A DNA stretch of 24,973 bases from Candidatus Heimdallarchaeota archaeon. GTDB taxonomy: Archaea > Asgardarchaeota > Heimdallarchaeia > Heimdallarchaeales > Heimdallarchaeaceae. Below the pieces are notes generated by a model. That model made no database searches, had not been told where the DNA came from, and worked only from the letters and a program-made list of their open reading frames with translations. Numbering within the stretch: position 1 is the stretch's first letter; each line of letters opens with the position of its first letter. Shown in pieces: positions 1,285 to 20,222 of the stretch. The stretch lies in assembly GCA_030668875.1 (NCBI GenBank), contig DAOVER010000042.1:1-24973 (forward strand), given 5' to 3'. The position numbers were made by a program, and so were the translations under genes.

Positions 1285-2298
1285 TTATACTGGAACAGGT
1301 AAGTTTCGAAGTATTTCACTTACAACGATAGTTCCAGTTGTTCCTTCTAATTCTGCTTCTGGTTTCATTTGCAACCTATGGGCACTTGCGACTCTGGCAA
1401 CTCTTTTTACATCATCAGGGATAACGTAATCTCTACCTCTCATTGCTGCAACTGACTTAGATGCATTTAGAAGAGCTATACTACACCTTGGACTTCCGCC
1501 CAATGTTAGTCTAGGATCGGTTCGAGTTGCTATCACCATATTCTTGATATATTCAATAATATCGTCATGAACAAATATCTGGGTCTCAATGCATTCTTTC
1601 ATTTTAGTAATGGTCATAGGAGTTGTTACTCTACGAACTGACTGTTTGATCTGTTTATGCTTTAATAGAATAATCTCCTTTTCTTCTTCAGGAGTAGGTA
1701 AACCTACTAACAGCTTAAACATGAACCTATCGACTTGAGCTTCTGGTAAGGGATAAGTTCCTTCCTGCTCAATTGGATTTTGTGTGGCAATTACTAAAAA
1801 GGGATCATCTAGCTTGAAAGTTGTTCCTTCTACTGTTACCTGTTTTTCTGCCATTGCTTCTAACAATGCTGCTTGAGTTTTTGGTGGGCTTCTGTTAATT
1901 TCATCAGCCAACAAGATATTTGTGAATATTGGTCCTTTTCTCATCTTGAATGTTCCAGCTTTTGGATCATAGATAGTAGTTCCTACTACATCTGATGGCA
2001 AAAGGTCTGGAGTAAATTGCACTCTTTTGAATTCACATCCAAGAGTTAGAGAAAAACTATTAGCCATTACGGTTTTTGCAATTCCCGGAACGCCTTCTAG
2101 TAGACAGTGTCCTCCACCAAGTAGAGCGATAAACATATCTTCTAGAACATCAACTTTTCCGATAATTACACGTCTTAGTTCGTTATATATTTCTTCCCAG
2201 ACTCTCTTTACGTCTTTTGGTGTAACAACTGCTTCTGTTGCTGTCTTTGCTTTCGCTTTTCCTTTTGTTTCACTTGTTTCTTCACTCATTTTTTTCAC
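1285..2298 (-). CDS. moxR: MoxR-family (MoxR-proper) AAA+ ATPase, copy 1; ATG at 2289 is an alternative start
   Basis: Walker A LLEGVPGIAKT, RVQFTPDLLPSD, Walker B ILLADEINRSPPKTQAALLEAM, ATQNPIEQEGTYPLPEAQVDRF and C-terminal GRDYVIPDDVK are all MoxR hallmark motifs. Confidence 0.96.
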   Translation of the reverse strand: MKKMSEETSETKGKAKAKTATEAVVTPKDVKRVWEEIYNELRRVIIGKVDVLEDMFIALLGGGHCLLEGVPGIAKTVMANSFSLTLGCEFKRVQFTPDLLPSDVVGTTIYDPKAGTFKMRKGPIFTNILLADEINRSPPKTQAALLEAMAEKQVTVEGTTFKLDDPFLVIATQNPIEQEGTYPLPEAQVDRFMFKLLVGLPTPEEEKEIILLKHKQIKQSVRRVTTPMTITKMKECIETQIFVHDDIIEYIKNMVIATRTDPRLTLGGSPRCSIALLNASKSVAAMRGRDYVIPDDVKRVARVASAHRLQMKPEAELEGTTGTIVVSEILRNLPVPV

Positions 2299-2320
2299 TT
2301 TTCCTTAAGTTATTTTTATC

Positions 2321-4120: not shown

Positions 4121-4508
4121 CTAATTCTACACCTTGTTCTCTAATTCCACGGAAACATATATCTAATCTCTGGATGGCCTCTTGATAGTCATCATATGTT
4201 ATTTCAGTGTCAGTATATCTAGCAATTTCAAAGGATGTAAGATACTCGTCCATAACTTCTGTGGAGATATTAGCTCTATTAGCAACTGAAAAACCGAATT
4301 CTCTTCCAGTTTGATAAATTGCACGGGACATACTAAGTAACCCATGAGCAATGTTATTTAATCCTCCAAAGGAAGCTATAACGGCACCTTTGTAATCTTG
4401 TCTTTGCTCAAATATCCTTACATCTGCCATGACAGATGTAAACATCTGGTTTAATGATTTAACTTGTTTTCTTTTCTTGAAGAACCCAAAGATACCTCTA
4501 TGACTCAA
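4056..4508 (-). CDS. Stand-alone soluble DUF4129-like protein (150 aa); TTG start
   Basis: YKGAVIASF...QTGREF...FEIARY...IT..D aligns by eye with the DUF4129 tail of the upstream gene. GGTGA lies 8 nt before the TTG. No TM segment. Confidence 0.75.
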   Translation of the reverse strand: MSHRGIFGFFKKRKQVKSLNQMFTSVMADVRIFEQRQDYKGAVIASFGGLNNIAHGLLSMSRAIYQTGREFGFSVANRANISTEVMDEYLTSFEIARYTDTEITYDDYQEAIQRLDICFRGIREQGVELVEPARQQTKKQVKRKKIKTRG

Positions 4509-7500
4509 TTTTCATTTCACCTACTTCTATTTTATCTACTATTTTTAATAATGCACGTAATCCGGAATTGAAGTCATTTTCAGTTATTTCTTCATATCCA
4601 TATCGTGCTTTTTCGAAATATGAGAGAAGTGTATACATTATCTCTCGTTCAATTTTGCCTTTTTCAGCAAGCAATCGCGAAAACTCCCAAGGAGTTTGAC
4701 TTTTATATCTTGGTAAGTCGAAGAATTCTCGACCGATACCCTCTACCACTGTCCAGGTTTTTATTAGCCCCTCTTGGTATCTTCCTTCCAATCCATCTCT
4801 TTTGATATCTTCTATTATCTCTTTTAGATAGTCACGTAATCGGCGTCTGAAGGTTTGTTTCTTTGCATAAGATTGCAGAGAATGCCTATTAAACCACAGG
4901 AAAAGAATTGCAACAACTGCTACAATACCTCCTATAACACCTCCAATTATAGCACCGATACTACCTGTTATTCCACCAGGTGGTGGAGCGACAGGACTAT
5001 CATTAATAACAACCAAATTCACTGAAGTTGTGGATCTGGAATTTTCAACAGCATCTACTGCTTCAATAAAATATTCCAACAAAAAATTACCATAAAAAGG
5101 TAATTCTATATTTGAGAGATTAAATGTTGCCTCAAATACATCAGAGATTCCAACGCGGATCATAGTGATATTATAATCCACTTCATTATAGGTAATATGT
5201 AATATTACCCCTGATACTGAAGTGAGGACATCTGTCACTGTTGCAGAGAATTCAAGTACCGTATCAGGGGTTATATATGATACATTTCCCGCTACAGCGA
5301 CATTACTAATTGTGGGTGCATCACTATCAACAGCTTGCACGGTCTGCATTGATCCTAAGAGAGGATTTGATGCGGGTAATGCCGTATCATAGGCAATATA
5401 ATACCACTCATACTCGTAATTATATTGAAGCGTAAGCTGATAGAACCATTGATTGGTACTAGTAATATTAGTCATTAAAGCTACAATATAATCTGTTTGA
5501 TTCACAAGTGTAACTAAATTGTGACTATTAACATGAAGTGTGACATTTTTCATACCGCTCCAAACAATACTATCGTTGATGAATACAGTAATGTTAATGT
5601 ATGGGTTTGTGGGGTTACCAGAGGGTATAATAGTCGGTACTTGCTCCTCAAATGGTTCAATAAAATCACCTAGTTGGAAGGTATTGTAACCTGTATATGT
5701 ATTATTCCAATAATAATCTGCATCATAGTATAGAAGGGCGTTAGTTTGTTTTGCACCAAATTCATCTAAACCATGTCCTGCATAATCTTTCACTTCGACA
5801 TAGAATCTGACATAATATTGTGATTCTGCTACAGTTGCATTAATCATGCCTCTATACTGATCCCCTCCAACATGCCATAGCGTAAAGGATTGCCACCCGC
5901 CTACTGATGTATTACCTAGTGGCTCTAAATAATTAAAGAAAAACTCTACTGATCTAATTCCTGTGTCAATATCAATAACATAAATATCGAATTGAATGAT
6001 GAAATATGGATCGTGAATTCCAGGATCGTAAGGATCAGGAGTCACAACCTCACCTGTAACGGCTGGTCTGTTGTTATCAGGTCCATAAATATTAATTGTG
6101 CGAGTTATTGAGGTAGCTGGGGCATAATCACCACCAGAAGCTACTAACGACAGACCTGGATAAGCATGAGTGTCCTGAAGTATTGACAGAAAATTAAGAG
6201 CAGTGAAATCAACCCAATTCTTCGTTGAAGTAATTAGGAGATTGGATGTTTCAACATCACCACCATTTGTTAATGTAATGAAAATATTTACCTTTTCTGG
6301 TAATCTTAACCATTGATCAGTTACCATCAAAGTATAATTGTGAGTTGCATCAAGAGCTCCCCAGAAAGTACTATTAAATACAGTAGATGTTGTTCCATCT
6401 AAAATATTTGCTCCACTAGGATCAGTTAGAGTTAGTATAAGTGCAAAATAAGTATTGAATACAGAATTATTTAAAGCTCCAGCAACAACTGCATAACGAT
6501 AATCTGCTCCAGAAACAGCTAGAGCTGTAACTGTTATTGTTTTTGTTTGTGTCTCATTAGTGGAATAATCTGGAATGACAGTATCAACGTGTCTTGACCC
6601 TGTTGCAACAGAGTATGGTTGAACAATTGAATCAGGGAAGTTCAGTTGGAAACTAGATGATTGAGCAGGATTGCCATACTCATCATAAAGAGCAACATCA
6701 TAGCCAATATTATTGCCTGTTGTGTAATATCTTACGGCATCATCTAGATCTAAATCAATTCTTGTAATATTAACTGCTAATTGTCCCTCTAAACTATCAT
6801 GAGTTAAAGTTGATCCAACAAATTCATCCCCGTTAGGATCTATTAAGAAATTAAAAATAAGCACATCTGTTACATCAGATATGTTGGTACCATCAAAATA
6901 AAATGTATCTTGAATCTCAGCTGTAGGATTAGATGTTACATAATCGTTAGTATAAATAGTTCCCTCTCCAGCTCCAGAAATCGTCAGTCTGACAGTTGAA
7001 TCAGGTTCTAAGCCCAATTGTGAGGTTAGATTCGCATAAACTGTAATTGATGTACCTCCAATGATTTCAGTTGGAGTGTTAATTTTACTTGGTCCCACTA
7101 TAAAGTAGGCATCAACAACCACTTGGTTCTCTGTAGCATCTACAACAGTTTCATAAATCAATCTATCATTTTGAATATCGCTGGTTCCTTCGTCTGTAAA
7201 GAAATTATACCCAAGTTGATCAATATCATAATACGCTTCATAAGTGACATCATCTACCAAAACAGGGGCAGTATTTGAATAAAGATCTTGATTGGAGGAG
7301 AAAGTTCTGTTATTATCAAAATGTATACCGTCAAGTAACCAACCGACCTTAAGACTGTATTCTGTTCCAGTAGAATCGATAACTGTATCATTATCAAATA
7401 AAATTCGAGTATTAAATGAATAAGAAGCAGACGGATTTGTGACATCAACAGTTACATCTACTTTAATTTGTCCAAAATAGAAAACATTTACATCTCCTGG

Positions 7501-8166
7501 ACTCCCCGCCCCTCTCCCCATGCCTGGGTTACCATAGAACCATGCAAGAAGAGTAATTTCCCCAATCTTAGAGAAGGGGTCTATAGAAAGAGCGGAAGTA
7601 GTTAATTGGATAGTAAACTCGCCTTGAGCATTAGTTACAGCACTTCCAACTTGATATTGAGGTGTTTCATATGTTACAGGACTACTGATATATTGACTTT
7701 CAGTAACATTGTAGAAAAGCCAAACAGTTTCTCCGCCCCAATAATCTCCAACAACAATGCCTTGCAAAACGCCCTCTACATCAATGAGAGTGTCTCTAAG
7801 AATATATTCATTGGCTGTTGGAGATGTTATACTTTTCATTATCGTTGGCATTGTTTGAATTTCCGTGTCAACACCTTGAACTGTCAACTCACTATTTTTA
7901 GGAGAATAAATCACTTTATTTTCAGATTCGATTTCCGGTAGCACAGAATCTTCTACCAAATCTGGAAAATACTCATATCTAGTTGGCGCATATGTATTGT
8001 CAACTATGTTTTGTGACCCTTGCCCAAATATATATGTTGGAGAACTAATTTCGTCGTTTTGCTCTTTTATTATACTCTGAGTTTGTACAAAAGCAACTGT
8101 AGACAATTGTATAATGAGTATTAGAAAGAAAATCATTCCTGTTAGTTTTGTTCTAATACTCTTCAT
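4498..8166 (-). CDS. Large single-pass surface protein (1222 aa): signal/anchor, ~1050-aa acidic beta-rich ectodomain with Ig-like repeats, TM, C-terminal DUF4129 domain
   Basis: Hydrophobic N-terminus; about 22 NxS/T sequons counted by hand; TM GAIIGGVIGGIVAVVAILFLWF; tail QTPWEF...YFEKARYG. ATGA overlap with the upstream stop. Confidence 0.85.
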   Translation of the reverse strand: MKSIRTKLTGMIFFLILIIQLSTVAFVQTQSIIKEQNDEISSPTYIFGQGSQNIVDNTYAPTRYEYFPDLVEDSVLPEIESENKVIYSPKNSELTVQGVDTEIQTMPTIMKSITSPTANEYILRDTLIDVEGVLQGIVVGDYWGGETVWLFYNVTESQYISSPVTYETPQYQVGSAVTNAQGEFTIQLTTSALSIDPFSKIGEITLLAWFYGNPGMGRGAGSPGDVNVFYFGQIKVDVTVDVTNPSASYSFNTRILFDNDTVIDSTGTEYSLKVGWLLDGIHFDNNRTFSSNQDLYSNTAPVLVDDVTYEAYYDIDQLGYNFFTDEGTSDIQNDRLIYETVVDATENQVVVDAYFIVGPSKINTPTEIIGGTSITVYANLTSQLGLEPDSTVRLTISGAGEGTIYTNDYVTSNPTAEIQDTFYFDGTNISDVTDVLIFNFLIDPNGDEFVGSTLTHDSLEGQLAVNITRIDLDLDDAVRYYTTGNNIGYDVALYDEYGNPAQSSSFQLNFPDSIVQPYSVATGSRHVDTVIPDYSTNETQTKTITVTALAVSGADYRYAVVAGALNNSVFNTYFALILTLTDPSGANILDGTTSTVFNSTFWGALDATHNYTLMVTDQWLRLPEKVNIFITLTNGGDVETSNLLITSTKNWVDFTALNFLSILQDTHAYPGLSLVASGGDYAPATSITRTINIYGPDNNRPAVTGEVVTPDPYDPGIHDPYFIIQFDIYVIDIDTGIRSVEFFFNYLEPLGNTSVGGWQSFTLWHVGGDQYRGMINATVAESQYYVRFYVEVKDYAGHGLDEFGAKQTNALLYYDADYYWNNTYTGYNTFQLGDFIEPFEEQVPTIIPSGNPTNPYINITVFINDSIVWSGMKNVTLHVNSHNLVTLVNQTDYIVALMTNITSTNQWFYQLTLQYNYEYEWYYIAYDTALPASNPLLGSMQTVQAVDSDAPTISNVAVAGNVSYITPDTVLEFSATVTDVLTSVSGVILHITYNEVDYNITMIRVGISDVFEATFNLSNIELPFYGNFLLEYFIEAVDAVENSRSTTSVNLVVINDSPVAPPPGGITGSIGAIIGGVIGGIVAVVAILFLWFNRHSLQSYAKKQTFRRRLRDYLKEIIEDIKRDGLEGRYQEGLIKTWTVVEGIGREFFDLPRYKSQTPWEFSRLLAEKGKIEREIMYTLLSYFEKARYGYEEITENDFNSGLRALLKIVDKIEVGEMKIES
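5000..6078 (-). repeat. Three tandem degenerate Ig-like protein repeats (starting near residues 697, 834 and 947 of the 1222-aa protein)
   Basis: Recurring pattern D..P......V.D..(S/T)G(I/V)..V.(F/L)...Y/W...A.D: DNNRPAV...VIDIDTGIRSVEFF...EVKDYAGH; DFIEP...INDSIVWSGMKNVTLH...IAYDTA; DSDAPTI...VTDVLTSVSGVILH...EAVDAVEN. Similarity is at protein level only. Confidence 0.6.
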
Positions 8167-11100
8167 TGATAATAGCTCTCCTTAATTGTAGAAAAATCTT
8201 GGTTACTCGTTTGAATAGTAATGTAAGCTATCGGCAGTAAGAATATTGATAATGACAATATATTCTCAATATTAATCATACTAACTACTGAGAAACTAAT
8301 ACTTCCATGTATAGAATCGCTGTAAATCTGATTCATAGCTACAGCAAAGCTTGCTGGAGGAGTTGAAATGAAAACAGATGCAGATGCATTCCATCTATCT
8401 AAATAGAACGTTAAGAAGACAAATGATCCCGCCCCATGGTTTCTAGCATCAACTACTATTGTAGTATTGACAAAACCACTTACATCTGTCACTCCATTAT
8501 ACAGTATTTTGTTATATGGAATAGAGGTGTTTAAAGTAGATGCAAGCTCAGATTTGTAGGTTGCTACATCCGTAACACCTGTATAAGCTTGATAATCTGA
8601 TTCTTGTATGAACCATACTTCTATTGCTTCTCCAGCTATTGCAGTTGGAGCACCTAAAGGAGGTTGCATATAAAGATAGAAATCAAAGTCTTCCCACAAG
8701 AAGAATCCATCTACACCTACATCCAGAACCGTATCATTTAACGTTGTTTCTGTTCGTAGATAATCGATTAGTAACATAACTGAAAATGTATAATTCTGAC
8801 CATAATTTGCCACTAAGAAATATGTGGTATCTTCAGGTAGGGCAAAATAATCTGTTATTCCATCATTTGAATATACCGTTGATGTTCCAGCACCATTGGT
8901 TAGGCCATCACCAATTTTAGTAACATCTTCAGGACCAATTATACCTAATTGTAACTGTTGAAGCTCATCAGACGTTAAAACATAATAGGACACATATCTT
9001 CCAGCTAAAGGCGTTATAAACCCGGGTTCTGCGTAAAGGGTTGTGCTTAAGGAATATGTGAACCCTCTTTGAGCAATATAATAATTATAAAATGTTCCTG
9101 GATCCTCAGGACTTGGTAAGTACTGCGTCGTTGCATTCATCGAAACCGTCGTCAAATATCCCTCAGGAAGAATAACGAAACCCGTTGCATTCAAAGAAGT
9201 GAAACTAATGAAAGCGAAAACAATATACGTCGTACTATCTGGATCTGATGGATTATAAAGTGGATATGCCGTGCTGTTGAAAGTAGGATATACCTCAGCT
9301 CTTCCGATTCCATTCGTTGCTTCATTGCCAAGATCATCAGCAACTGCAAGGAGTTGAGTTGGATTTGTTTGATAGGTTTGATAATCTGCAGCAGTTACTG
9401 CCTTGAAATTAACTATCGCTCCCACTGCAGGGGACCCTTCACTTGAAACATCTGCCCTTACTGTATATTGTAAATTATCAAGAATATACACTTCATCGCT
9501 TCCCACAACTTGTGTTGGAAGTGCGTCATAAGACGCTGGAAGTCCATGCATTGACACATCTACATCATAAGAAGTATAGAGTGTATTTTCACAATAAACC
9601 AAATCGACACCACTAGGATAAGGCCCAATTTGGTATTGTCCCCAACGATGTACTGGGTCAGCACCACCTTCATCTATTGGAAGGAGAGCTTCTACCCAGC
9701 CATAGAGGTTAGCAAAAGCTAATGTTCTATTATTTGGGTCACCACCATTTGGGCTACCTATAGCAAATCCAAAAACAGGTCTTGCAGGAATTCCATTCAA
9801 ACGCATAGTCATAATGGCTAAAGAAAGAAAAGCAGAGATTGAGAAGTCTGTTCTTTCATAAAGAAGTTGTGCTCTATCCCTACCCCCGTTATCAGTTTGG
9901 TCAGCAGTGGGCACCCCATATTCAAGTAGAATTTTGTCAATTATGTAAGCAGCACGTTCATGGAACGTATGGCCTAAATCAGTTGAGTCATTGTTGATTC
10001 CTTCTGCGAAATATATAACTCCAGGAGAAGTTGTCTCATAATTTGTGGGTATTTGGAGAAATCTTTCAACAGCTGGATCAGTAGCATATCCAGGAACATA
10101 ATAATCTGTACAATCATTAATAATAGTCTGAGTATCATCCTGAACAAAATAAGTTGTATAATCGTAAGTACCAACAAAACCTAATATTTCAGCTGAAGAT
10201 TGAAGCAGTAGTTGATCTCTTAATGTATAAACGATATCTGTTGAACCTTCAACTGCTACATTAGTACCATTTTCATCAAGCAGGTAATCATCCCAATGTG
10301 AGATGGAACTACCTTCATCAGTATCATATACACTAAGATGAGGATAATGATATGAGCTCCAAGTTGTAAGTAATGGACTGGTAACTGTTGTTGTGGCCGA
10401 ATAAGCTAACTGCTTGATATCCATACCAATAGCTGTAGGATCTGGTGATCCATAATCTGATCCATCTTGGAGAGCATTAGTTACAGCGTCGTTTGAGGTA
10501 AACTCCCAAGACGTAGAATCATAATAATCGTGAACCTCCCATCTATAAAGGAAGTTACCTAAATCACCATCCAAACCATCCGTGAAAACTTCCGCTACTT
10601 CTTGATTGCCTAATGAACTATTAAAATCTAGAGCATCCAAGAGATCTAGTAAACCATCTATATAGAAGGGTGCAGATCCTTGGAAATTAGCATTAAACCA
10701 ATCAGGATCAATAATTTGTTCATCAATAACTCCAGGAGGTAAGTCACGATATTTGTCTAACATGCTCAAATAAGGACCCATGAATGACATTAAGAGGATA
10801 TAAATTGTGAAACTTGTAAAAAGAATCCTCCAGATATTATGTCTAGAATGCCATTTAAACAACCCAAATGGCCACGATATTATTGGGAGGAGTATGTACA
10901 AAAAGATTGATGCAATAATTCGCAAAATGCTAGGTTTGAATTCAATTCTATATGTTTCAAAAGAGATTAACAACAAGAATACGTTTATTCCAATTGCTAC
11001 ATAAAACAAAGCTAAGATTACAAAGGAAGGCATACCCGGAATCTGCAAATCACCAAAAAGGAAGGTCATTACGACTGTAGTTACTAGTGATATACCAAAA

Positions 11101-11270
11101 ATAATTGAGAATATGATATTTATTGGTTTAATCTTTTTTTCTGCCAACAATTCAGCGGGTAACCAATCTTGTTTTTTCTTAAGCTTTCTCTGCTTAGGAA
11201 CGACAGCGGCTCGAGTTTTCAGTTTACTACCGCTTTTTAATTTTTTAACTTTTTTTGGTTTATCAGACAT
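8163..11270 (-). CDS. Membrane-anchored transglutaminase-like (TgpA/DUF3488-like) protein, 1035 aa, predicted catalytically inactive, with a long C-terminal beta-rich extension
   Basis: Lys-rich N-terminus and 3-4 TMs. LYRWEVHDYYDSTSW resembles TgpA YWR..VYD.FDG..W. Core MRLNGIPARPVFGF...YGWVEA matches the transglutaminase-like consensus R..GIPAR.V.G...HAWVE, but without the Cys, His and Asp. Confidence 0.8.
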   Translation of the reverse strand: MSDKPKKVKKLKSGSKLKTRAAVVPKQRKLKKKQDWLPAELLAEKKIKPINIIFSIIFGISLVTTVVMTFLFGDLQIPGMPSFVILALFYVAIGINVFLLLISFETYRIEFKPSILRIIASIFLYILLPIISWPFGLFKWHSRHNIWRILFTSFTIYILLMSFMGPYLSMLDKYRDLPPGVIDEQIIDPDWFNANFQGSAPFYIDGLLDLLDALDFNSSLGNQEVAEVFTDGLDGDLGNFLYRWEVHDYYDSTSWEFTSNDAVTNALQDGSDYGSPDPTAIGMDIKQLAYSATTTVTSPLLTTWSSYHYPHLSVYDTDEGSSISHWDDYLLDENGTNVAVEGSTDIVYTLRDQLLLQSSAEILGFVGTYDYTTYFVQDDTQTIINDCTDYYVPGYATDPAVERFLQIPTNYETTSPGVIYFAEGINNDSTDLGHTFHERAAYIIDKILLEYGVPTADQTDNGGRDRAQLLYERTDFSISAFLSLAIMTMRLNGIPARPVFGFAIGSPNGGDPNNRTLAFANLYGWVEALLPIDEGGADPVHRWGQYQIGPYPSGVDLVYCENTLYTSYDVDVSMHGLPASYDALPTQVVGSDEVYILDNLQYTVRADVSSEGSPAVGAIVNFKAVTAADYQTYQTNPTQLLAVADDLGNEATNGIGRAEVYPTFNSTAYPLYNPSDPDSTTYIVFAFISFTSLNATGFVILPEGYLTTVSMNATTQYLPSPEDPGTFYNYYIAQRGFTYSLSTTLYAEPGFITPLAGRYVSYYVLTSDELQQLQLGIIGPEDVTKIGDGLTNGAGTSTVYSNDGITDYFALPEDTTYFLVANYGQNYTFSVMLLIDYLRTETTLNDTVLDVGVDGFFLWEDFDFYLYMQPPLGAPTAIAGEAIEVWFIQESDYQAYTGVTDVATYKSELASTLNTSIPYNKILYNGVTDVSGFVNTTIVVDARNHGAGSFVFLTFYLDRWNASASVFISTPPASFAVAMNQIYSDSIHGSISFSVVSMINIENILSLSIFLLPIAYITIQTSNQDFSTIKESYYQ

Positions 11271-11592
11271 GGTTTTGCCTCATATTAGTAAAAGGTACTG
11301 TGCACTAGATGGTTACCCTATTAACGTTATACAACCGCTTTATTCAAAAACTTTTTGTGATATGTAATGACATTGTTTCTCTAAGATATAAAAAAAGAAT
11401 AAGTTTTTTTAAACCAATTCCTTTAACTTCTTATAATTTAATATTTAATATTACTAGTACAGTAAATGTATAAGTATACTAAACAGCTAGAGCTAACTTC
11501 AAAAACGGATGTCATACATTCATTAAAAAACAAACTGAAAACAGTTTTATTTAGCAGTAATAACTATAAAACTATTTCAGTAAAAATCCAAG
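11271..11592. promoter_or_regulatory. Divergent promoter region shared by module 1 (minus) and thyX (plus)
   Basis: 322-bp very AT-rich gap between divergent starts. Candidate BRE/TATA GAAAACAG-TTTTATTT near 11537-11552 for thyX. Short palindromes TACTAGTA and AGTATACT. Exact elements unresolved. Confidence 0.6.
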
Positions 11593-12297
11593 GTGATCAT
11601 TATCCAAGTTAAATTAATTTCTTACCCTGAAGAAGCAGAATTAATAGCAAAAATGGCCGGATTAATATGTTATTCTGGTGAGAAGGTTTTCGAGGAAATA
11701 AAGGAAAAGGCCTCTCTAAAGTCTGATGAATATCTTGAAACAATAATAAAATCTGGACACTTATCGATAGTAGAACACAATGTGTTTGTTTTCTATGTAT
11801 CTGGAATAAGTAGAATAACTTCACATCAATTGGTAAGAAAGAGAATAGCTAGTTTTTCACAGCAATCCCAGAGATATGTTAATGCAGAAAATTTTGAATA
11901 TATTATTCCAGACGAAATCAATAAATCAACTTTTGTAGAAAAATACAAAGAAATTGTAAATCAAAGCCAAGAACTTTATCAAGAAATGGTTAATAATGGC
12001 GTTCCAAAAGAAGATGCGAGATACATTTTACCTAACGCAACTTCCACCCAAATGATAGTTTCAATGAATGGTCATTCACTTATCGATTTCTTAGTAAGAA
12101 GGATTTGCCAAAGATCCCAGAGTGAGATTCGTGAATTAGCAGAGAGGATGCTTGAGGAGGTAAAAAAGGTTGCTCCAGCAATCTTCAAAAATCTTGGTGC
12201 ATTTTGCGATTTCTATGGTTATTGTCCTGAAAACAGTCATTCGTGTGGAAGAGCGCCTACAATAGATGAATTAAAAGAAAAAGCTTCTCTTAAGTAG
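11593..12297 (+). CDS. thyX: Flavin-dependent thymidylate synthase ThyX, divergent at FAD-binding positions; true start may be ATC at 11602
   Basis: GHLSIVEH, SRITSHQLVRKRIASFSQQSQRY, EDARYILPNA, R..QRSQSEIR and a Cys-rich C-terminus (C.....CPE....CG) as in archaeal/clostridial ThyX. Confidence 0.93.
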   Translation: MIIIQVKLISYPEEAELIAKMAGLICYSGEKVFEEIKEKASLKSDEYLETIIKSGHLSIVEHNVFVFYVSGISRITSHQLVRKRIASFSQQSQRYVNAENFEYIIPDEINKSTFVEKYKEIVNQSQELYQEMVNNGVPKEDARYILPNATSTQMIVSMNGHSLIDFLVRRICQRSQSEIRELAERMLEEVKKVAPAIFKNLGAFCDFYGYCPENSHSCGRAPTIDELKEKASLK

Positions 12298-13138
12298 TGT
12301 TATTAATTGAAATATTTTCAATGTCATCTTCAGTTGCAACTGTATCAGAATTTTCCTCTTGTTGTTGATCATCTTGTGTATCTACATCTACAATCTTGGG
12401 CAGAATTGCATTGGTTCTTATTAATACAACAGAATATATTATAGCTACTAAGATCAAAGAAGGACGAATTATGTATTCTGCTATGGAATCTTCGGGTATA
12501 AGGTAAAAAATCATTAAGGCATAAAGGGCAGCAAGGGTAGCGAAAATTATCAATATTAAAGATGGCCACAGCATCCTTTTCAATAGTACAATCCATTTTT
12601 GCAAAGATTTAATTTCTTCAGGAGATGTATATTCAAAATCAGTTTTTATTAAATTGTCCTTATATTGTCGCACTTGTTCTTTTGTATACTGACTCTTTGT
12701 TCTTACAAATGTATGTTCTTGTTCGAAGTATTCCATATAATAAAAAGTTGACAGAAAACGTAAGCCTATACATAACCCGGCCAAGGATTGATATATTATA
12801 ATGTCTACTCTACCCAAAGTAGCTGGGAAAAACATTGAGTTCGGGTTAGCTAGAAGAAGAGACAGTATCGTGCCAAATACAAAGAAGAGTCCAAAAGCAA
12901 CTTCAGAGGACATTTTTATATGAGTTCCTTTTATAAGATCTGTCATCAATATTACTATTCCAAGTACCAACCATATTGTGAAGATATAGATATTCAAACT
13001 AAAAGCTGATTGGATGACAATTAAACTAATAGCTAAAGCTCCAAATAGATGATGGACACTTGCAATGAAAGTAGACCCTAGAGCTGTCAGAGAAGTTAGT
13101 TCCCAATCTTCCTCAAACACTTTGTCCTTTATTCTCAT
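12290..13138 (-). CDS. Hypothetical multi-pass membrane protein (about 6 TMs, acidic tail); last gene of module 2
   Basis: Long ORF with alternating hydrophobic segments. ATGA overlap with DUF58 copy 2. Its stop overlaps the thyX 3' end by 8 bp. Confidence 0.75.
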   Translation of the reverse strand: MRIKDKVFEEDWELTSLTALGSTFIASVHHLFGALAISLIVIQSAFSLNIYIFTIWLVLGIVILMTDLIKGTHIKMSSEVAFGLFFVFGTILSLLLANPNSMFFPATLGRVDIIIYQSLAGLCIGLRFLSTFYYMEYFEQEHTFVRTKSQYTKEQVRQYKDNLIKTDFEYTSPEEIKSLQKWIVLLKRMLWPSLILIIFATLAALYALMIFYLIPEDSIAEYIIRPSLILVAIIYSVVLIRTNAILPKIVDVDTQDDQQQEENSDTVATEDDIENISINNTT

Positions 13139-14517
13139 GATGATCGCCCCACTGCTTCTTGTACCAGTCTCTGGGTTGGAGAGTATTTTTTCATTAATCG
13201 GTATAAAGATAAGATGATATTATCGTCATATCCAAATATATCAACATAATCTCCACGAATTGAATACAGTATTTGACGTAATTCTATCTCCCTTTTTCTA
13301 TATTCTTCACTCACAATACTTGGAAAAACATATTTCAGTATCTCCCCATAATTCATATCTTCTGTCCTATCCAACATCCAGTCATGGGAGGATAGAATAT
13401 TGAAATGCATAGTAGCAAAATTAACAAAAACCACTCTACTCCCCATGGTTTGAAGTAGATGTATGCCCTGTAGTTTTTTTATTAAGTCACCTTCTAAATC
13501 GGAAAATATTATAGCTATAGAATGTATCACATTATTGTTTTTGGTAAATTTAACAGCATTAAGGAAACTACTATGAACACCAGTAGCATCAATATCATAT
13601 AGGTTGAGCATAAGTCTTAGTTCATGCTTTCCTACTTGTGGTATTATGTATTTTTGCACATTTTCAGAATAAGCTATCACAGCCAAATCATGATTAGTGC
13701 CTTTAATCAACGAACATAGTTCAACTACTGAAGATAAAGCATACTCGAACTTGGGTCCATACATAGTACTGCTAAGATCAAGATAAATCAAGAAATGCAA
13801 GTTTCTTTGGTCTTCAAACTCTCTTGATATCAATTTATCATGTCTTGCGGTAGCATACCAATCGATGTGCTTCAGTTGATCCCCAGGTAAATAATCTCGG
13901 AGCGCGAAAAATTCATCGCCTCTTCCCTTAACTCTCTGAGCAAATTCATGAACCATTTTCAACAATAGTTCTTTCTTTGTCTTCCATGGTATGTTAATAC
14001 GAGGTCTTTGAGGTAGTATCTTTATTTTTTGTGTGTCTTTCAATATTCGTTTATGTTTGAAAAGAAACTGAAAGGATCCAACGGAAATCTCAATTGGACC
14101 AATTTCGCCATTTCCTCTTCTAGTGGCAAGCAATAACCAAACAATTTTCGTTTTTTTCTTTGGTGATAATTTGATTAGTACTGTCTCTGCTTTGTCTATA
14201 CTCTTAAAATGAAACGAGAAACTGAGACTAATTTTCGTAAGAATTGTTCTTCTAGATGGATTTGTTAATTCAACTGCTACAGCTAACAAACCTCTACTTC
14301 TCATAAAATCCTTTGAGCAACTCATTTTTGTATTAAAAGAATAAGTATGCGAAAATAAGAAGGAAATAAATGTGGAAGTAATAACTAGCCAGAATAAGAC
14401 ACCAGGAACTATAAGAAGTAAATTATCTATTGCTAGGCCTAATATCACAAATAGACTCCCGAATAGAATGAACGCCTTACCATTCTTTGTAAGTTCAAAG
14501 TGTCTTTCTTCTTCCAT
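13135..14517 (-). CDS. DUF58 family protein, module 2
   Basis: KGRGDEFFALRDYLPGDQLKHIDWYATARHDKLISREFEDQ, YLDLSSTM and IFSDLE; N-terminal TM hairpin; directly downstream of moxR copy 2. Confidence 0.93.
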   Translation of the reverse strand: MEEERHFELTKNGKAFILFGSLFVILGLAIDNLLLIVPGVLFWLVITSTFISFLFSHTYSFNTKMSCSKDFMRSRGLLAVAVELTNPSRRTILTKISLSFSFHFKSIDKAETVLIKLSPKKKTKIVWLLLATRRGNGEIGPIEISVGSFQFLFKHKRILKDTQKIKILPQRPRINIPWKTKKELLLKMVHEFAQRVKGRGDEFFALRDYLPGDQLKHIDWYATARHDKLISREFEDQRNLHFLIYLDLSSTMYGPKFEYALSSVVELCSLIKGTNHDLAVIAYSENVQKYIIPQVGKHELRLMLNLYDIDATGVHSSFLNAVKFTKNNNVIHSIAIIFSDLEGDLIKKLQGIHLLQTMGSRVVFVNFATMHFNILSSHDWMLDRTEDMNYGEILKYVFPSIVSEEYRKREIELRQILYSIRGDYVDIFGYDDNIILSLYRLMKKYSPTQRLVQEAVGRSS

Positions 14518-14538
14518 CGGAAATCTCTGCCTTTTGTT

Positions 14539-15483
14539 TTATATCACGACTTCTACATCAGAAAGGATGTTTTCAATTATCTCAGGAATATGGATTTGTT
14601 CGATTTCTGCTTCTGGAGAGAGTATTAGTCTGTGATTCATAACAGGAAAGAATATCGATTTGATATCATCAGGTTCTACAAAATCTCTACCTCTAATTGC
14701 AGCAATAGATCGACTCAGAGTAAGTAAAGCAATTGATCCTCTTGGACTTGCTCCAAGAGCTAAGGAAGGAATCGAACGTGTTGCAATTACTAGTTTCGCA
14801 ATATACTCAAGAATCTGATTACTTACAGTAACGTTTTTCTCAATTTCTGTTATTAATTTGATAATGGTTTTTTGATTAGTTACTGTCTCAACATCTGCAA
14901 ACATCTTTTCTCTTTTCTTAACAAGCATATCAATTTCTCCGTGAAGAGAAGGAGGATAAACAGGAATCTTAACTAGAAATCTATCAATCTGAGCTTCAGG
15001 AAGAGGATAAACTCCCGTAGATTCTATTGGGTTCTGGGTAGCGATAACCATAAATGGTTCTGGAAGTTTGAACGTTTGATTTCCAGAAGAAACTTGCTTC
15101 TCTTGCATTGCCTCTAACAAAGCAGATTGTGTTTTGGGTGGTGCTCTGTTGATTTCATCTGTCAGTAGTATGCTTGTGAAAACGGGTCCTTCAATAAATC
15201 TAAAAGAACTTGTTTCTCTTTCATATATGTTACCCCCTGTGATATCAGCGGGCATTAAATCGCTCGTAAACTGGATCCTTTTGAAACCCATTTTGATAAC
15301 ATCTGCTAAAGTACTAGCCATCAATGTTTTTGCTATTCCTGGAACACCCTCTAGAAGAACGTGTCCTTCACTTAGAAGAGAAGCAAACATTAGCTCGATA
15401 ACATTATCATTACCCACTATTCGTTTTTTCATTTGCTCCATTATTTTGTCAAAAATATCTTTTGCTTCTTGCACTTTTGTCAT
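14539..15483 (-). CDS. moxR: MoxR-family AAA+ ATPase, copy 2
   Basis: HVLLEGVPGIAKT, RIQFTSDLMPAD, ILLTDEINRAPPKTQSALLEAM, ATQNPIESTGVYPLPEAQIDRF, GRDFVEPDDIK. Confidence 0.96.
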   Translation of the reverse strand: MTKVQEAKDIFDKIMEQMKKRIVGNDNVIELMFASLLSEGHVLLEGVPGIAKTLMASTLADVIKMGFKRIQFTSDLMPADITGGNIYERETSSFRFIEGPVFTSILLTDEINRAPPKTQSALLEAMQEKQVSSGNQTFKLPEPFMVIATQNPIESTGVYPLPEAQIDRFLVKIPVYPPSLHGEIDMLVKKREKMFADVETVTNQKTIIKLITEIEKNVTVSNQILEYIAKLVIATRSIPSLALGASPRGSIALLTLSRSIAAIRGRDFVEPDDIKSIFFPVMNHRLILSPEAEIEQIHIPEIIENILSDVEVVI

Positions 15484-16769
15484 TTAAATCGTCCTCTTTT
15501 TTGTATCTCTTCAAGCATTTTGAAGAGTGAAAGGAAAGTTTTTGAATCAATTTTTCTTGTAAACGCTATTTCGAATAATTCTTTTTCCTCATCTGTAAAT
15601 TTCTCCAAATGAATATAACTTGCCTTCTTCATAAGATAATAATGATAAGCTTTCTGAGGATAAAGCTCATACTGGAAATACAAGTTTGATAGAAACTGTT
15701 CTTCAATCGTTGGTTTTATAGGAGAACCAAAAGTATCGTATAGTTCCCTCTCCCTAGACCAAATCCTATCCGATAAGAATTTCTTATAAGTTTCCTTTGG
15801 TTTGAATCTCTCTCTAAATCTCGGAGTAACATAGTATAAAATCAAAACAATCATAACTAGTAAGAAAATAAAGAGCTGGGTTTTTGATAATAGAACTATT
15901 GTCCCATAAGATTGGTTAATCATTCCCTCTGTTGTTGAAAAGGGCCATCTTTTATGGCTTTCTTCAAAACATACAAGTCTCTCTTCTCCCGAAGAATAAT
16001 GCTCCATCATATAGAGTGCGAGATTAATATTCCCAAAACCTTTGCTATAAAGATCGTTAGTTAGAAAACTTGGGGAAGAAATAACAACAATAAATCCATG
16101 TCCTCTTTTAAGAACTGTACCTACTTGTAAACTAGATGTATCTTCAGAATCAACATCCCAAATACCGTCTTGATTCTCATCTAAAAACGCGGTACTATGA
16201 GTACTTAATATACCGGCAGTCAGTTCTGTCTGTATTGAACTCTCTGCAATGTAAGACAGTTCTCTAGCTTCAATCATGCAAAGGCTAGTGTTTGAATTTG
16301 TAGAATTTAACATAATGATTTCTGGTGTTTTATAATAATAAGTTGTTTCTAATATTGTTGAGGTTGAAAGAAAAACCCCGAAGTGCTTTGCTAGAAGATT
16401 GGTAGGACCAGAACCAGCCAATATTACTAATAGACCACCCTGTAAAACAAAGCTGTCTATTGCTAATGTTTCTGAATCTTGATAGTTTTTAGAGCCTCCA
16501 GCAATGATAAGAGTTGATGATTCTAGAAGTTTAATGATGGGGTCTGTTGACAATATCGTTCTTGTGGTATTATATCCAGATTCAAGAAGCAAGCTGTTGA
16601 AATATGACATGCCCCCAGACCCCGTATTGCTTATAGAATATGGAGGTTGTGCGCTGGTAACATTGATACTAAGGGGGAGGATTATTATTAAAAATATAAC
16701 TAGAGTTTGGATAAGCATTTGGAACAATGGTGAATATTTCTTTGAAAATAGAATCGGCGCAGATTTCAT
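15480..16769 (-). CDS. DUF4350-type membrane protein, module 2 (signal/anchor, GATase-like ectodomain, TM, cytoplasmic tail)
   Basis: YSISNTGSGGMSYF, FVLQGGLLVIL, GHGFIVVISSPSFLTN and VCFEESH match the copy-1 motifs; same position upstream of moxR; ATGA overlaps at both ends. Confidence 0.75.
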   Translation of the reverse strand: MKSAPILFSKKYSPLFQMLIQTLVIFLIIILPLSINVTSAQPPYSISNTGSGGMSYFNSLLLESGYNTTRTILSTDPIIKLLESSTLIIAGGSKNYQDSETLAIDSFVLQGGLLVILAGSGPTNLLAKHFGVFLSTSTILETTYYYKTPEIIMLNSTNSNTSLCMIEARELSYIAESSIQTELTAGILSTHSTAFLDENQDGIWDVDSEDTSSLQVGTVLKRGHGFIVVISSPSFLTNDLYSKGFGNINLALYMMEHYSSGEERLVCFEESHKRWPFSTTEGMINQSYGTIVLLSKTQLFIFLLVMIVLILYYVTPRFRERFKPKETYKKFLSDRIWSRERELYDTFGSPIKPTIEEQFLSNLYFQYELYPQKAYHYYLMKKASYIHLEKFTDEEKELFEIAFTRKIDSKTFLSLFKMLEEIQKRGRFK

Positions 16770-17563
16770 TGTTCATCTTCCTCGCTAATTCTTTGAATAA
16801 TTTCGATATCCGCTTGAGCCGCACTCAAACTCTTTACTGATTCAAGTTCTTCGATGAAATCCAACAAATCTCTCCTTTTCATTTGTTGTTTTTTATATCT
16901 TGCAACATAGAAAGTTTGAATCATTGAATTTAAGTGGGGAAGAATATTAGGCAAATCGAGTGAGCTTGCAAATTCTTTGGGTGTAAGATAAGTTTCTCTG
17001 CTTATCCCTAGAATTTTCTTCATGTTCTCATCAAGTTGATGGTAACCAAAAATTATGCCTTCCGTATATTTTTTATCTCTCAAATATTCCCTAAGTACTT
17101 CTGAAAGTGTTTTTATTTGTGTTCTGAACTTTTCTCTTCGAGCCTGGAGTGTGCCTCCAGTAACCAAGGAACTTGGCACTGGTCTTCTTTCCTCAGTTTT
17201 TCTTCTAAAAAACAGAAAAGCGATTAGAATTATTATAACTATTCCAACTGCTATAGGAATAACTTGAGCAGGAATAATTGCTTCACTTCCACCCTGTGGA
17301 TTATTTGGTGGAATAGTTGGAGTATCAGTTGGAGTGGTAGGAGTGTAGGGATCAGTAGTATTGAATGGATCTGATGGGGAAGTAGTTGGAGAGGAAGTAC
17401 TTGTAATTAAATCATTTTCATCACGATTATCTATACTAACGTACGTTTCTTGAGTACTATTTACCAGAATGAATATTAGTACACAAGCGAAAATTAGAAA
17501 CAATCGAACATTAATATATTTCTTGAAATCAATCTTCACTTGTATCACCTTTTTGAACTTCAT
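16766..17563 (-). CDS. Small single-pass protein with a Thr/Pro/Ser linker and C-terminal DUF4129 domain; likely true start GTG at 17539
   Basis: N-terminal hydrophobic segment, T/P/S tract, TM IAVGIVIIILIAFLFFRRK, tail LTPKEF...FYVARY. GGTGA + 5 nt + GTG at 17539. Confidence 0.8.
   Translation of the reverse strand: MKFKKVIQVKIDFKKYINVRLFLIFACVLIFILVNSTQETYVSIDNRDENDLITSTSSPTTSPSDPFNTTDPYTPTTPTDTPTIPPNNPQGGSEAIIPAQVIPIAVGIVIIILIAFLFFRRKTEERRPVPSSLVTGGTLQARREKFRTQIKTLSEVLREYLRDKKYTEGIIFGYHQLDENMKKILGISRETYLTPKEFASSLDLPNILPHLNSMIQTFYVARYKKQQMKRRDLLDFIEELESVKSLSAAQADIEIIQRISEEDEQ
17290..17410 (-). repeat. Low-complexity Thr/Pro/Ser linker (TSTSSPTTSPSDPFNTTDPYTPTTPTDTPTIPPNNP)
   Basis: Imperfect AGTTGGAG-like repeats on the + strand, reflecting repeated Pro/Thr codons. 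Confidence 0.7.
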
Positions 17564-18539
17564 CTATTACTAGTTTGCTTTGACGAAGGAAAGCATAAAT
17601 TTTGCACAAAGGCCAATATCTGCTCAAGCACACTTGATATTTGTGAGCTGCTGTAAGATATCCCAAATAAGCACATCTTCCATCTTCATAATATATGCAT
17701 GTATCAGCTTTTTCTCTTCTAAGGATTAAATTAACTGTTCTATTCAAGTATACCATCGATAAAGCACTAAATTGCCTTTCGCTTCTCTTCGGAGGTTCGT
17801 CCAAATCGAAGATTGTTTTTACTGATAATGGCATATCTGGAAGAATTAAATGTGAGTAAGATACCTTTGAACCTTTCTTGGTTGTTGATATACTAGACAG
17901 AAGTTTACCTAAGCTAATACCAAGTGCCCCTCCAAGCCCACTTACTAGGGTTAGCGAAAATGCAAATATGAATAGGAACCCAAAGGCCAAACTTTGTATG
18001 GATGAGCTATCGGTACCAGCAGAGCTCAGTGAAGTAAATAGAATTATCTGGGAGAAGTAAAGAAGGATAAAGAAGAGAAGAGAAAAAACAACGGTTGGAA
18101 TGATGAGATCTTGAGCTTCTTCTCTCCATATAATACCAGCAATTATACCAGAAAGGAGAAAGGGTATGAAGGCCGTAATTATGTAATTAGAGAGTAGTAC
18201 GAAGGGGTCTGTATATGTACCTTCAAATGCAAATTTAAATGGTAAAACTAAAAAGGACTGAGGAGTCCAAACAACGTCAGATACAATGAATTGGTCTTGG
18301 AGGAAATGGTAAAGGACACCAAAAAACATTGAAAAAGCATATCCAATTGCCATGTAAGTTGAGATTCTTAGAATAAGTTTAGTAATATACTCCCGTTTTC
18401 CTCTATTTTTCAAATGAGGAAAAATTAATTTATACATGAATTCCCTATAATTCATCTTGAGTGGAGTGGTACCTCCTTTAACCTTTGGGCCTTCATCTAC
18501 TGGAAGAGGGGGTCGTTGTGTAATTACCATATTATTCAC
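17529..18539 (-). CDS. Hypothetical membrane protein (about 4 TMs) with a C-terminal cytoplasmic Cys4 putative Zn-binding domain; likely true start ATG at 18530
   Basis: Four hydrophobic segments, then CIYYEDGRC-x14-C-x7-C. The annotated GTG lies inside GGTGA, which is 5 nt before ATG 18530. Confidence 0.75.
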   Translation of the reverse strand: MNNMVITQRPPLPVDEGPKVKGGTTPLKMNYREFMYKLIFPHLKNRGKREYITKLILRISTYMAIGYAFSMFFGVLYHFLQDQFIVSDVVWTPQSFLVLPFKFAFEGTYTDPFVLLSNYIITAFIPFLLSGIIAGIIWREEAQDLIIPTVVFSLLFFILLYFSQIILFTSLSSAGTDSSSIQSLAFGFLFIFAFSLTLVSGLGGALGISLGKLLSSISTTKKGSKVSYSHLILPDMPLSVKTIFDLDEPPKRSERQFSALSMVYLNRTVNLILRREKADTCIYYEDGRCAYLGYLTAAHKYQVCLSRYWPLCKIYAFLRQSKLVIDEVQKGDTSED

Positions 18540-20222
18540 CTATATAACTATCAATCTAACTCCTTTTGAAGTTTTTAATAGAAAGTAAACACTTGCAGAA
18601 GCTAATGTAAGTGTGCATAACATAACTATGATTCCATAGACCATCAATGAGATAGTGATTATCAAAAGTACTGAAAAAATTATCATATACAATGAGGTCA
18701 CAATTAGTGATATTGCAACAATTGAAAGAAGGTTTATGGAACTTATAATAGATTTTACTCTGTGTTGTTTATATCTGTACCATACCACGGTTGCGAATAA
18801 TGCAATTACAATAGAAAGTAAGAATAAAGAATAACCTAGGAAAGACACTGTATCTTCAATAGTAGTAAACGTAAAAATAAAGCTGATAAATATCCCAATA
18901 GCCAGAAATCGAGTAAATCCAACTGCAATTGAGGAGAAAAATGGTGGGGAGGAGGAACTCATCTTTTCGAATAATGCATCTACTTCTGTTCCACAGGACC
19001 AACAAACACGTGCAAATTGCGGTAGTACTTGATTGCAGTTTCGGCACTGGATTTTAGGGAAAGACCAACAATTCAGACAAAATTCCCCATTATATACTGG
19101 TGTTCGACACTGTGAACATACCATCAAATTAGTTTTTTCATCATAAAGAGGTTCTGTGTTCTTCATTTTCTCAAGATCTTCCTTTAAAGGGGGTGAGTGA
19201 GAAGAAATATCTGGACATAGCTTCTCAATGTGTTGAGTAAAACATTTAGGACAAAAACTAGGAACAGAGAGCATTATCACTAAAACAAATATCCCAAACA
19301 AAACATAAGATAAGTTTCCAAGAAGAGAAGAGATCAGCAATATCGTTTCCTCACCTGTGCTAAAATTCCATAAACTATGGAAAGAAATGCTCAAAATTAG
19401 AAACAAACCGCAAATTACTATTCTCGTATATTTTGGAAGTTTATTGCGATATAGGAATGCTAACCCCAAACCTGTAGCAGCTAACATAGTTGTTACGGTG
19501 TGTAAAGGGTAGATGCTTCGAAGAGGAACTAAGAAATCAACAGCGGTTTCAGGGTTAGAAGAATATAAAAGAAATTGTTCAAATAAATCAAACCATGCAC
19601 CAAAAAATCCTCCAAACATAACAAAAATTCTGAATGAAGGTGTAAGTCTTGTATGAATTGATCGTTTAGCATTGAGATTTAATCTAGCATAGTTTCCAAA
19701 CAAGATGATTATGGGGAAAATCTTTGCTATTTCTTCAACTATAGGAATAATAAGTAAGAAGAAGATATTATGTATGATCTGATATACCACAGGAAATGAG
19801 TCTGACGACGAGAAAAATCCAGAAGTAAAGGTCACCAAAATAAAAAATTCCTTTTCTATAATTACAGCAAAATAAGGGGACAGAACCCCCACCACTAAGA
19901 GGAGAGAAAAGAGTTTCTTGATTAGCTTGGTTTCAAGTTGAGTGCTTGTTATACTAAATAGGAAATAAATACATGTTACCCAGAGAATGAAAAATACTGT
20001 AATTATGAGAATTATAACAATAGGAAAATATACAGAATTTTCGTATCTAGTAACAATGGTAACTAGGAAATAAGCGAGAACCGTTAAAAAGACTAAAGAT
20101 ACAACTTTAGCTAGTGTTGAGAAACTCAAGATGCGCTTGTGTATTGGTTCAATGATTAATAATTCTTCAACTGGAGTATCTGCTTCTTTTTTCTTAGCTG
20201 AAACATTAACCATTGTTCCCAA
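18540..20222 (-). CDS. prsW: PrsW-family (M82) intramembrane metalloprotease with internal zinc-ribbon domains and extra C-terminal TMs
   Basis: All four PrsW motifs in order: IVEEIAK, FDLFE, PLHTV, FHSLWN. Then CPKC..H..C and four CxxC pairs (CSQC, CLNC, CRNC, CWSC), followed by about 4 more TMs. Confidence 0.85.
   Translation of the reverse strand: MGTMVNVSAKKKEADTPVEELLIIEPIHKRILSFSTLAKVVSLVFLTVLAYFLVTIVTRYENSVYFPIVIILIITVFFILWVTCIYFLFSITSTQLETKLIKKLFSLLLVVGVLSPYFAVIIEKEFFILVTFTSGFFSSSDSFPVVYQIIHNIFFLLIIPIVEEIAKIFPIIILFGNYARLNLNAKRSIHTRLTPSFRIFVMFGGFFGAWFDLFEQFLLYSSNPETAVDFLVPLRSIYPLHTVTTMLAATGLGLAFLYRNKLPKYTRIVICGLFLILSISFHSLWNFSTGEETILLISSLLGNLSYVLFGIFVLVIMLSVPSFCPKCFTQHIEKLCPDISSHSPPLKEDLEKMKNTEPLYDEKTNLMVCSQCRTPVYNGEFCLNCWSFPKIQCRNCNQVLPQFARVCWSCGTEVDALFEKMSSSSPPFFSSIAVGFTRFLAIGIFISFIFTFTTIEDTVSFLGYSLFLLSIVIALFATVVWYRYKQHRVKSIISSINLLSIVAISLIVTSLYMIIFSVLLIITISLMVYGIIVMLCTLTLASASVYFLLKTSKGVRLIVI

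Follow-up and report, generated by a model that had tools for sequence, protein, structure and literature searches.

In the literature, the RHR motif is what defines ThyX, a thymidylate synthase and a drug target. Among the described enzymes closest to the one considered here are those of Thermotoga maritima (TM0449; PDB 1O26, 1KQ4 and many mutants) and Mycobacterium tuberculosis (Rv2754c; PDB 2AF6, 3GWC and 2GQ2). In the T. maritima enzyme, N169 reportedly lies on the same subunit as the RHR motif for a given FAD, as Mathews et al. are said to have found in 2003. In M. tuberculosis, the AMP phosphate, ribityl and FMN phosphate groups of FAD are hydrogen-bonded by the RHR of one subunit (residues 95–97), and the same groups are bonded by Ser71 and Arg190 (Arg165 in H. 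pylori) of the neighbouring subunit, while in the T. maritima complex the folate stacks on the isoalloxazine face (PMC6514825). Within the Asgard archaea, ThyX is polyphyletic, patchily distributed and acquired from bacteria, and the enzyme of Prometheoarchaeum syntrophicum has been validated experimentally as a thymidylate synthase (PMC9931769).

The window analysed here is a stretch of 24,973 nucleotides from a Heimdallarchaeaceae genome, and positions 11593–12297 of its plus strand form a thyX reading frame of 234 amino acids, with a GTG start and the stop codon included. The product matches the full length of the PF02511 (Thy1) profile (positions 1–191 of 191; E 4.6e-62, 209.6 bits against a cut-off of 24.8) and the ThyX equivalog TIGR02170 (179.1 bits against a cut-off of 87.9), and ThyX was the only profile family that it matched. 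An AlphaFold2 model built with 83 homologues as input was confident throughout (mean pLDDT 94.9, pTM 0.90). When this model was searched with Foldseek, the top 50 PDB matches were all ThyX (probability 1.00, TMq 0.66–0.73, TMt 0.66–0.78), led by the M. tuberculosis and T. maritima enzymes at a TM of about 0.7. The M. tuberculosis protein was the top fold match and also a strong match to the PDB by sequence (E 1e-21), just behind the ThyX of C. glutamicum; its motif context (R-x-R..S.SQ.SQRY) is nearly identical to that of the window protein. T. maritima ThyX has the same fold (TMt 0.75–0.78) and belongs to the same Pfam and TIGR family, but it is only about 29% identical and lacks both C172 and the Cys-rich C-terminal tail of the window protein. 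Close homologues are labelled Heimdallarchaeota, Heimdallarchaeaceae or Ca. Heimdallarchaeum. P. syntrophicum ThyX, an Asgard enzyme like this one, belongs to a different ThyX branch.

Residue equivalences were taken from a HMMER alignment to T. maritima ThyX (PDB 3n0b/1kq4, in which the chain index is the native number plus 12). The DNA at 11827–12132 agrees exactly with the preliminary description: it reads QLVRKRIASFSQQSQRY and carries the Lys codon AAG at 11839–11841, so that the RHR motif reads RKR; this residue, K83, corresponds to H79 of T. maritima and H96 of M. tuberculosis. Two further changes fall in the segment that reads NGHSLIDFLVRRICQRSQSEI from position 12067: H161 (CAT, 12073–12075, plus strand), which corresponds to R165 of T. 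maritima, R190 of M. tuberculosis and R165 of H. pylori, and D165 (GAT, 12085–12087, plus strand), which corresponds to N169 of T. maritima and H194 of M. tuberculosis. The preliminary description of this locus had read the Lys codon at exactly this place and, in Thermotoga numbering, had named the three changes H79K, R165H and N169D; the alignment gives the same assignments. It had also counted L173R as part of the change, which does not hold, as this position (R169 here) varies both inside and outside the clade.

Apart from these three residues, the active site is that of a canonical ThyX. The dUMP-binding and catalytic residues R82, S92, R94, Y95, R143 and R170 (T. maritima R78, S88, R90, Y91, R147 and R174) are all present, as had been claimed, and are invariant or nearly so in the 83-sequence alignment. 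Equivalents of T. maritima R80, H53, E58 and H59 are likewise found. The other FAD-contact equivalents, S58, E61, R82 and R84 (T. maritima T55, E58, R78 and R80), are kept, with S58 standing for Ser71 of M. tuberculosis when counted along the alignment. The signature R-H-R-x7-S-x-R-Y is missed because the protein reads R-K-R-x7-S-x-R-Y, with the central His alone differing. Two candidate signature positions close by were set aside. The Arg that corresponds to T. maritima H178 (R174 here) is the majority state of the subfamily (113 of 149 representatives), and the Ser of W181S is peculiar to a few genomes, with most members of the clade keeping Trp.

All 30 Heimdallarchaeaceae genomes encode Lys, His and an acidic residue (Asp or Glu) at the three positions, using codons that alternate synonymously between AAA and AAG, between CAT and CAC, and, at the acidic position, among GAT, GAC and GAA. 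In a comparison of 56 clade sequences with 212 outgroup sequences, position 83 is invariably Lys in the clade and His in 92% of the outgroup, position 161 is His in 100% of the clade and Arg in 96% of the outgroup, and position 165 is Asp in 94% of the clade (Glu in the remainder) and His or Asn in the outgroup. Together, these genomes indicate that the triad is fixed under purifying selection across a whole archaeal family. The remainder of the protein has changed little: of the 64 positions that are at least 80% conserved in the outgroup, the clade keeps 54, relaxes 5 conservatively and switches 5 to a new fixed residue (T12P, T66V, H83K, T157S and R161H), and none is degraded. N63 and D165 are further fixed differences. 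N63 is found in 100% of the clade and in none of the outgroup, and V66, also at 100% in the clade, is Thr in 84% of the sequences outside it. N63 and V66 (11779–11790, plus strand; T. maritima I60 and T63) lie just past the conserved E61-H62 and, judged from secondary-structure order only, would neighbour H161 on an adjacent strand. The Thr-to-Ser change S157 (12061–12063, plus strand; T. maritima T161) lies two residues before N159.

The three changes are far from what chance would produce. In a library of 1.84 billion proteins, the 50%-identity clusters nearest to the query supplied 149 representatives. Of these, 129 have His and 4 have Lys where T. maritima has H79, 137 have Arg and 2 have His where it has R165, and 130 have His or Asn where it has N169. 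About 13% of the representatives have F, K, S, T, Q, N or P instead of the His of RHR, and so the central His cannot be taken as strictly defining for ThyX. In 20 ThyX genes of other Asgard families, the triad was never found; these genes encode the canonical RHR, rarely RYR or RQR, and most have Arg at the second position, so that the substitutions are not a common feature of ordinary archaeal ThyX. A degenerate DNA pattern for R-K-R-x-A-S-[FY]-S-Q-x-S-Q-R-Y was found at 29 loci in 185,579 species genomes (GTDB), all of them Heimdall-type MAGs and including Ca. H. endolithica PR6, Ca. H. aukensis PM71 and AB_125. One of these loci is cut, and every complete one has the full triad. This pattern demanded A-S-[FY]-S-Q after RKR and is blind to a second lineage, described below, that reads R-K-R-V-G-A-F.

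Among the 399 genomes of the phylum that were scanned, the ThyX proteins of the 29 other Heimdallarchaeaceae genomes are 62–92% identical to that of the window, and the best identity outside the family is 47%, with families of the same order matching weakly. In the phylogeny, the Heimdall clade is monophyletic (SH-aLRT 95–97) and is sister, with a support of 98, to three canonical H/R/N sequences, one of which is labelled Hodarchaeales. Its stem is short (0.2–0.26, against 0.65–0.76 for the canonical sister). Because the sister sequences are canonical, the tree places a single origin of the Heimdallarchaeaceae triad on the stem of the family. The isolation of the clade fits the polyphyletic and patchy distribution of ThyX in Asgard archaea (PMC9931769).

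The triad was at one stage taken to be exclusive to Heimdallarchaeaceae, an idea overturned by a search seeded with P0173, another Lys-bearing ThyX. This search exposed further Lys lineages: a group with Lys, Arg and Asp (P0270–P0277 and P0280), a group with the full Lys, His and Asp (P0285 and eight others), and P0281. The second group with the full triad is about 45% identical or less to the window protein and has EF rather than EH after the GH motif. Both groups share with the window protein the intact S-x-R-Y and a set of four conserved cysteines. The group with the full triad is at least partly phage-borne. One of its members is a prophage or phage gene (L084, on IMGVR_UViG_640069310_000002) that is 65% identical to P0285 and is flanked by VapE-like, SNF2 and MazG genes on one side and by gpA-type terminase and lambda-type portal genes on the other, which places it in a tailed prophage or phage. 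A phage collection contained no relative of this lineage at 60% identity or more, and no near-identical DNA for the prophage locus.

The second K/H/D group and the K/R/D group are parted from the Heimdall clade by a branch with a support of 99. Forcing all K/H/D sequences into one clade costs 78 lnL units (p-AU 0.03), which is only moderately strong; the groups of this test were named after the tree had been seen, and the alignment still included the triad columns, a choice that favours lumping. On this tree, the triad evolved separately in the phage-linked branch of ThyX. The three residues are also coupled, and this coupling was followed across 379 ThyX sequences. Wherever Lys is found at position 83, an Asp or Glu stands at position 165 (81 of 81 sequences). 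A His at position 161 is found in 68 sequences together with Lys and the acidic residue; beyond these, only one degenerate tandem protein and two records resembling chimeras have it. Few phylogenetically independent contrasts are available: strongly supported branches require three, and the best tree allows up to six. They all point in one direction, but their number is too low for a sign test to reach 0.05. The two chimera-like records had been candidate intermediates. In P0091, the C-terminal half is nearly identical to the clade member P0038 and the N-terminal half is foreign; P0129, judged by motif only, looks like the same case. Both are probably assembly chimeras.

The genomic setting suggests what this enzyme does for its host. 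No match to PF00303 (ThyA) accompanies the single thyX of the assembly that contains the window (3.23 Mb, 92% complete), as is usual where ThyX makes the thymidylate of a cell, and thyX is present in 30 of 30 Heimdallarchaeaceae genomes. Since ThyA is missing in 29 of these 30, two of which are single-contig, ThyX can be taken as the thymidylate synthase of the family; on genomic grounds, the triad-bearing form would be the enzyme that serves Heimdallarchaeaceae. The only ThyA-family match in the 30 genomes is a weak and partial one (G023, contig C187, 15559–15939; 43 bits, profile positions 104–219), which could be contamination, a remnant or a distant relative. A different possibility is that the protein has lost dTMP synthesis and methylates or otherwise modifies another nucleotide. 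ThyX homologues that act on other substrates are known, among them nucleoside-antibiotic and phage DNA-modification enzymes (PMC5954106). However, the retention of every dUMP-binding and catalytic residue, the position of this protein as the sole thymidylate synthase in nearly all of the family, the short branch and the small number of changed conserved positions make such a change of function very improbable. By profile, fold, catalytic residues and genomic role, the window protein is a ThyX, and it fails the literal RHR signature alone.

Taken with the contacts described for the M. tuberculosis enzyme and the reported placement of N169, the substituted residues surround the ribityl-pyrophosphate of FAD rather than its isoalloxazine face. 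The reading that we favour, and consider reasonably likely, is that the FAD clamp has been rebuilt around the ribityl-pyrophosphate in a coupled and compensated way, with the enzyme still holding FAD and making dTMP. The guanidinium of the neighbouring subunit (the Arg at the start of the N-A-R helix) would have given way to the imidazole of H161, and the imidazole of the RHR motif to the ammonium of K83. The carboxylate of D165, which replaces Asn or His one helical turn further along, may position or neutralise K83. In effect, the subunit that offers a strong positive charge to the phosphates would have changed. As to the order of events, the Lys and the acidic residue would probably have come first and the Arg-to-His change later, because the K/R/D combination exists in nature and H/H/x is absent. 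The contact between K83 and D165, the relocation of charge and the retention of FAD are each what we infer from the positions and the coupling of the three residues.

The same substitutions might instead mean that the flavin itself is handled differently, for example with FMN in place of FAD, a loose and exchangeable FAD, or a shifted pose or redox potential, in an enzyme that is still a thymidylate synthase. Of the three changed residues, two contact the AMP phosphate and FMN phosphate directly (PMC6514825), and replacing the conserved Arg of the outgroup with His takes a guanidinium off the pyrophosphate. Four more fixed switches (P12, N63, V66 and S157) suggest that the pocket has been adjusted more broadly than by an exchange of single residues, and the presence of the same triad in a phage-associated lineage means that it may confer a selected property. 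Against this, the number of basic groups is unchanged (His and Arg becoming Lys and His), and the remaining positions that are conserved in FAD-binding relatives have stayed as they were. The K/R/D intermediate is what stepwise compensation predicts, and the stem on which the Heimdall triad arose is short compared with that of the canonical sister. In addition, ribK overlaps a gene for a RibL-like cytidylyltransferase in the genome that contains the window; RibL was assigned only from its family and from gene order, the NCBIfam matches being under the equivalog cut-offs. This pair is consistent with FAD being made in the host, and a probable ribK-ribL pair argues for the availability of FAD. 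On balance, we regard altered flavin handling as possible but unlikely. Loss of the Arg to His may well lower the affinity for FAD, and the data fit the same cofactor at a different affinity as well as they fit full compensation.

The window protein also has four conserved cysteines (C172, C205, C211 and C218; 12106–12246, plus strand). C172 comes two residues after the dUMP-binding R170, and the other three form a C-terminal tail of the type C-x5-C-P-E-x4-C-G, which is modelled at a pLDDT of 95–97. All four are nearly invariant in the 83-sequence alignment, and C172 co-occurs with the Cys tail in 121 of 148 representatives, most of the exceptions being tandem or extended proteins. The site is common to the Heimdall clade, its canonical relatives and the phage-linked K/H/D lineage, and it is absent from all of the solved ThyX structures that were aligned. 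It is probably a metal site (Zn or Fe-S) beside the active site. No description of an Fe-S or zinc ThyX was found in the literature searched.

This site, and the genes on the far side of the window, bear on whether a different reductant, such as F420H2 or another donor (for example ferredoxin acting through the four cysteines), might replace NADPH. F420H2 had been thought conceivable in the preliminary description from the nearby cofE and frhB. Both genes are real: cofE lies at 21654–22403 and an FrhB-like gene with a 4Fe-4S dicluster domain at 22425–23480, each on the minus strand. ThyX has no dedicated NADPH domain (PMC3498832), the conserved cysteine site sits close to the dUMP-binding residue R170, and the family genomes have two copies of cofE, one of them at a fixed distance from thyX. 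However, the cofE and frhB genes of the window are 9.4–11 kb from thyX, on the opposite strand and beyond an unrelated MoxR/DUF58 module. The same spacing, at 9–17 kb, is found in five other genomes of the family, and its recurrence points to conserved family synteny and not to an operon. The triad itself is at the phosphate and ribityl end of FAD, not at the isoalloxazine face on which the folate stacks (PMC6514825), and the four cysteines, being common to canonical H/R/N relatives, cannot explain it. The phage-linked K/H/D lineage adds a further difficulty, as it resides in a bacterial-type prophage module (gpA terminase, lambda-family portal). F420 is not expected in such a setting. A change of reductant is thus highly unlikely.

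In its surroundings (1285–20222), thyX is the only plus-strand gene between two minus-strand modules, each of the type MoxR (AAA_3)-DUF58/vWA-DUF4350-DUF4129/transglutaminase-like. No functional link between thyX and these flanking modules is evident in the window. Just past the FrhB-like gene, at the edge of the window, is a reading frame for a DDE_Tnp_1 transposase (23952–24971, minus strand).

Of the two halves of the preliminary description, which had offered compensated or altered cofactor handling, the first has held up. Compensation is what the strict co-occurrence of the three residues, their fixation, their independent recurrence and their location at FAD-contact positions argue for. 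For an altered cofactor or reductant we found no support, in view of the 54 of 64 conserved positions that are kept, the role as sole synthase, the ribK-RibL pair and the phosphate/ribityl location of the changes. The window protein is most probably functionally equivalent to canonical ThyX. A bolder proposal would make the K/H/D clamp the mark of a distinct functional class of ThyX. Flavin would be bound differently in this class, for example as FMN or as a loosely bound or exchangeable FAD, and the four cysteines might serve as an entry point for electrons. Selection would then have favoured the clamp in Heimdallarchaeaceae and, independently, in a lineage carried by phages. We think this quite improbable.

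Several other departures from the usual ThyX architecture were seen among the relatives. In P0121 (595 amino acids, 90% identical to the window ThyX), about 360 inserted residues separate G-I-S-R-A from S-H-Q-L-V-R-K-R, immediately ahead of RKR. The insert starts with Cys, ends with Asn followed by Cys, and has weak matches to Intein_splicing and LAGLIDADG; it looks like an intein. Several canonical relatives of 540–580 amino acids (P0125 and others) have inserts at about the same place, and that of P0125, the only one scanned, matches Intein_splicing and HNH. Tandem two-domain ThyX proteins of 440–484 amino acids also occur among the nearest representatives (P0124, P0130, P0143, P0171, P0180, P0212 and others). 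In these, one domain is degenerate, with E-F-R or E-H-R for R-H-R, and the other is canonical with a Cys tail. There is also a bacterial group with R-Q-R (P0298–P0300, P0347 and about 20 others, with Halanaerobium and Bacillota labels), which retains Arg at the second position and His (or Tyr) at the third and is without the coupled changes.

In the full-text literature, some primary papers being outside its coverage, neither an RKR ThyX nor any mutant at the three positions was found to be described, no assayed member of either K/H/D lineage came to light, and His79, Arg165 and Asn169 were met within the same coverage only in the review cited above (PMC6514825). The structures among the Foldseek matches include no T. 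maritima mutant at 79, 165 or 169. The main text of the study of Asgard ThyX mentions the ThyX motif once; the string "RHR" is absent from it, and no Lys variant is discussed (PMC9931769).

The triad is real, and the ThyX that bears it is a conserved variant of a known enzyme that has arisen more than once. As ThyX is both defined by RHR and pursued as a drug target, the exchangeability of its FAD contacts matters. A natural and repeatedly evolved alternative, complete with a K/R/D intermediate, is a test case for epistasis in cofactor binding. If the clamp does alter the affinity or identity of the flavin, it would represent a new biochemical class of ThyX; if it leaves the flavin unchanged, it would be a clean example of compensated active-site evolution. 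Heimdallarchaeaceae are much studied for their closeness to eukaryotes, and their sole thymidylate synthase would escape any annotation rule that insists on RHR.
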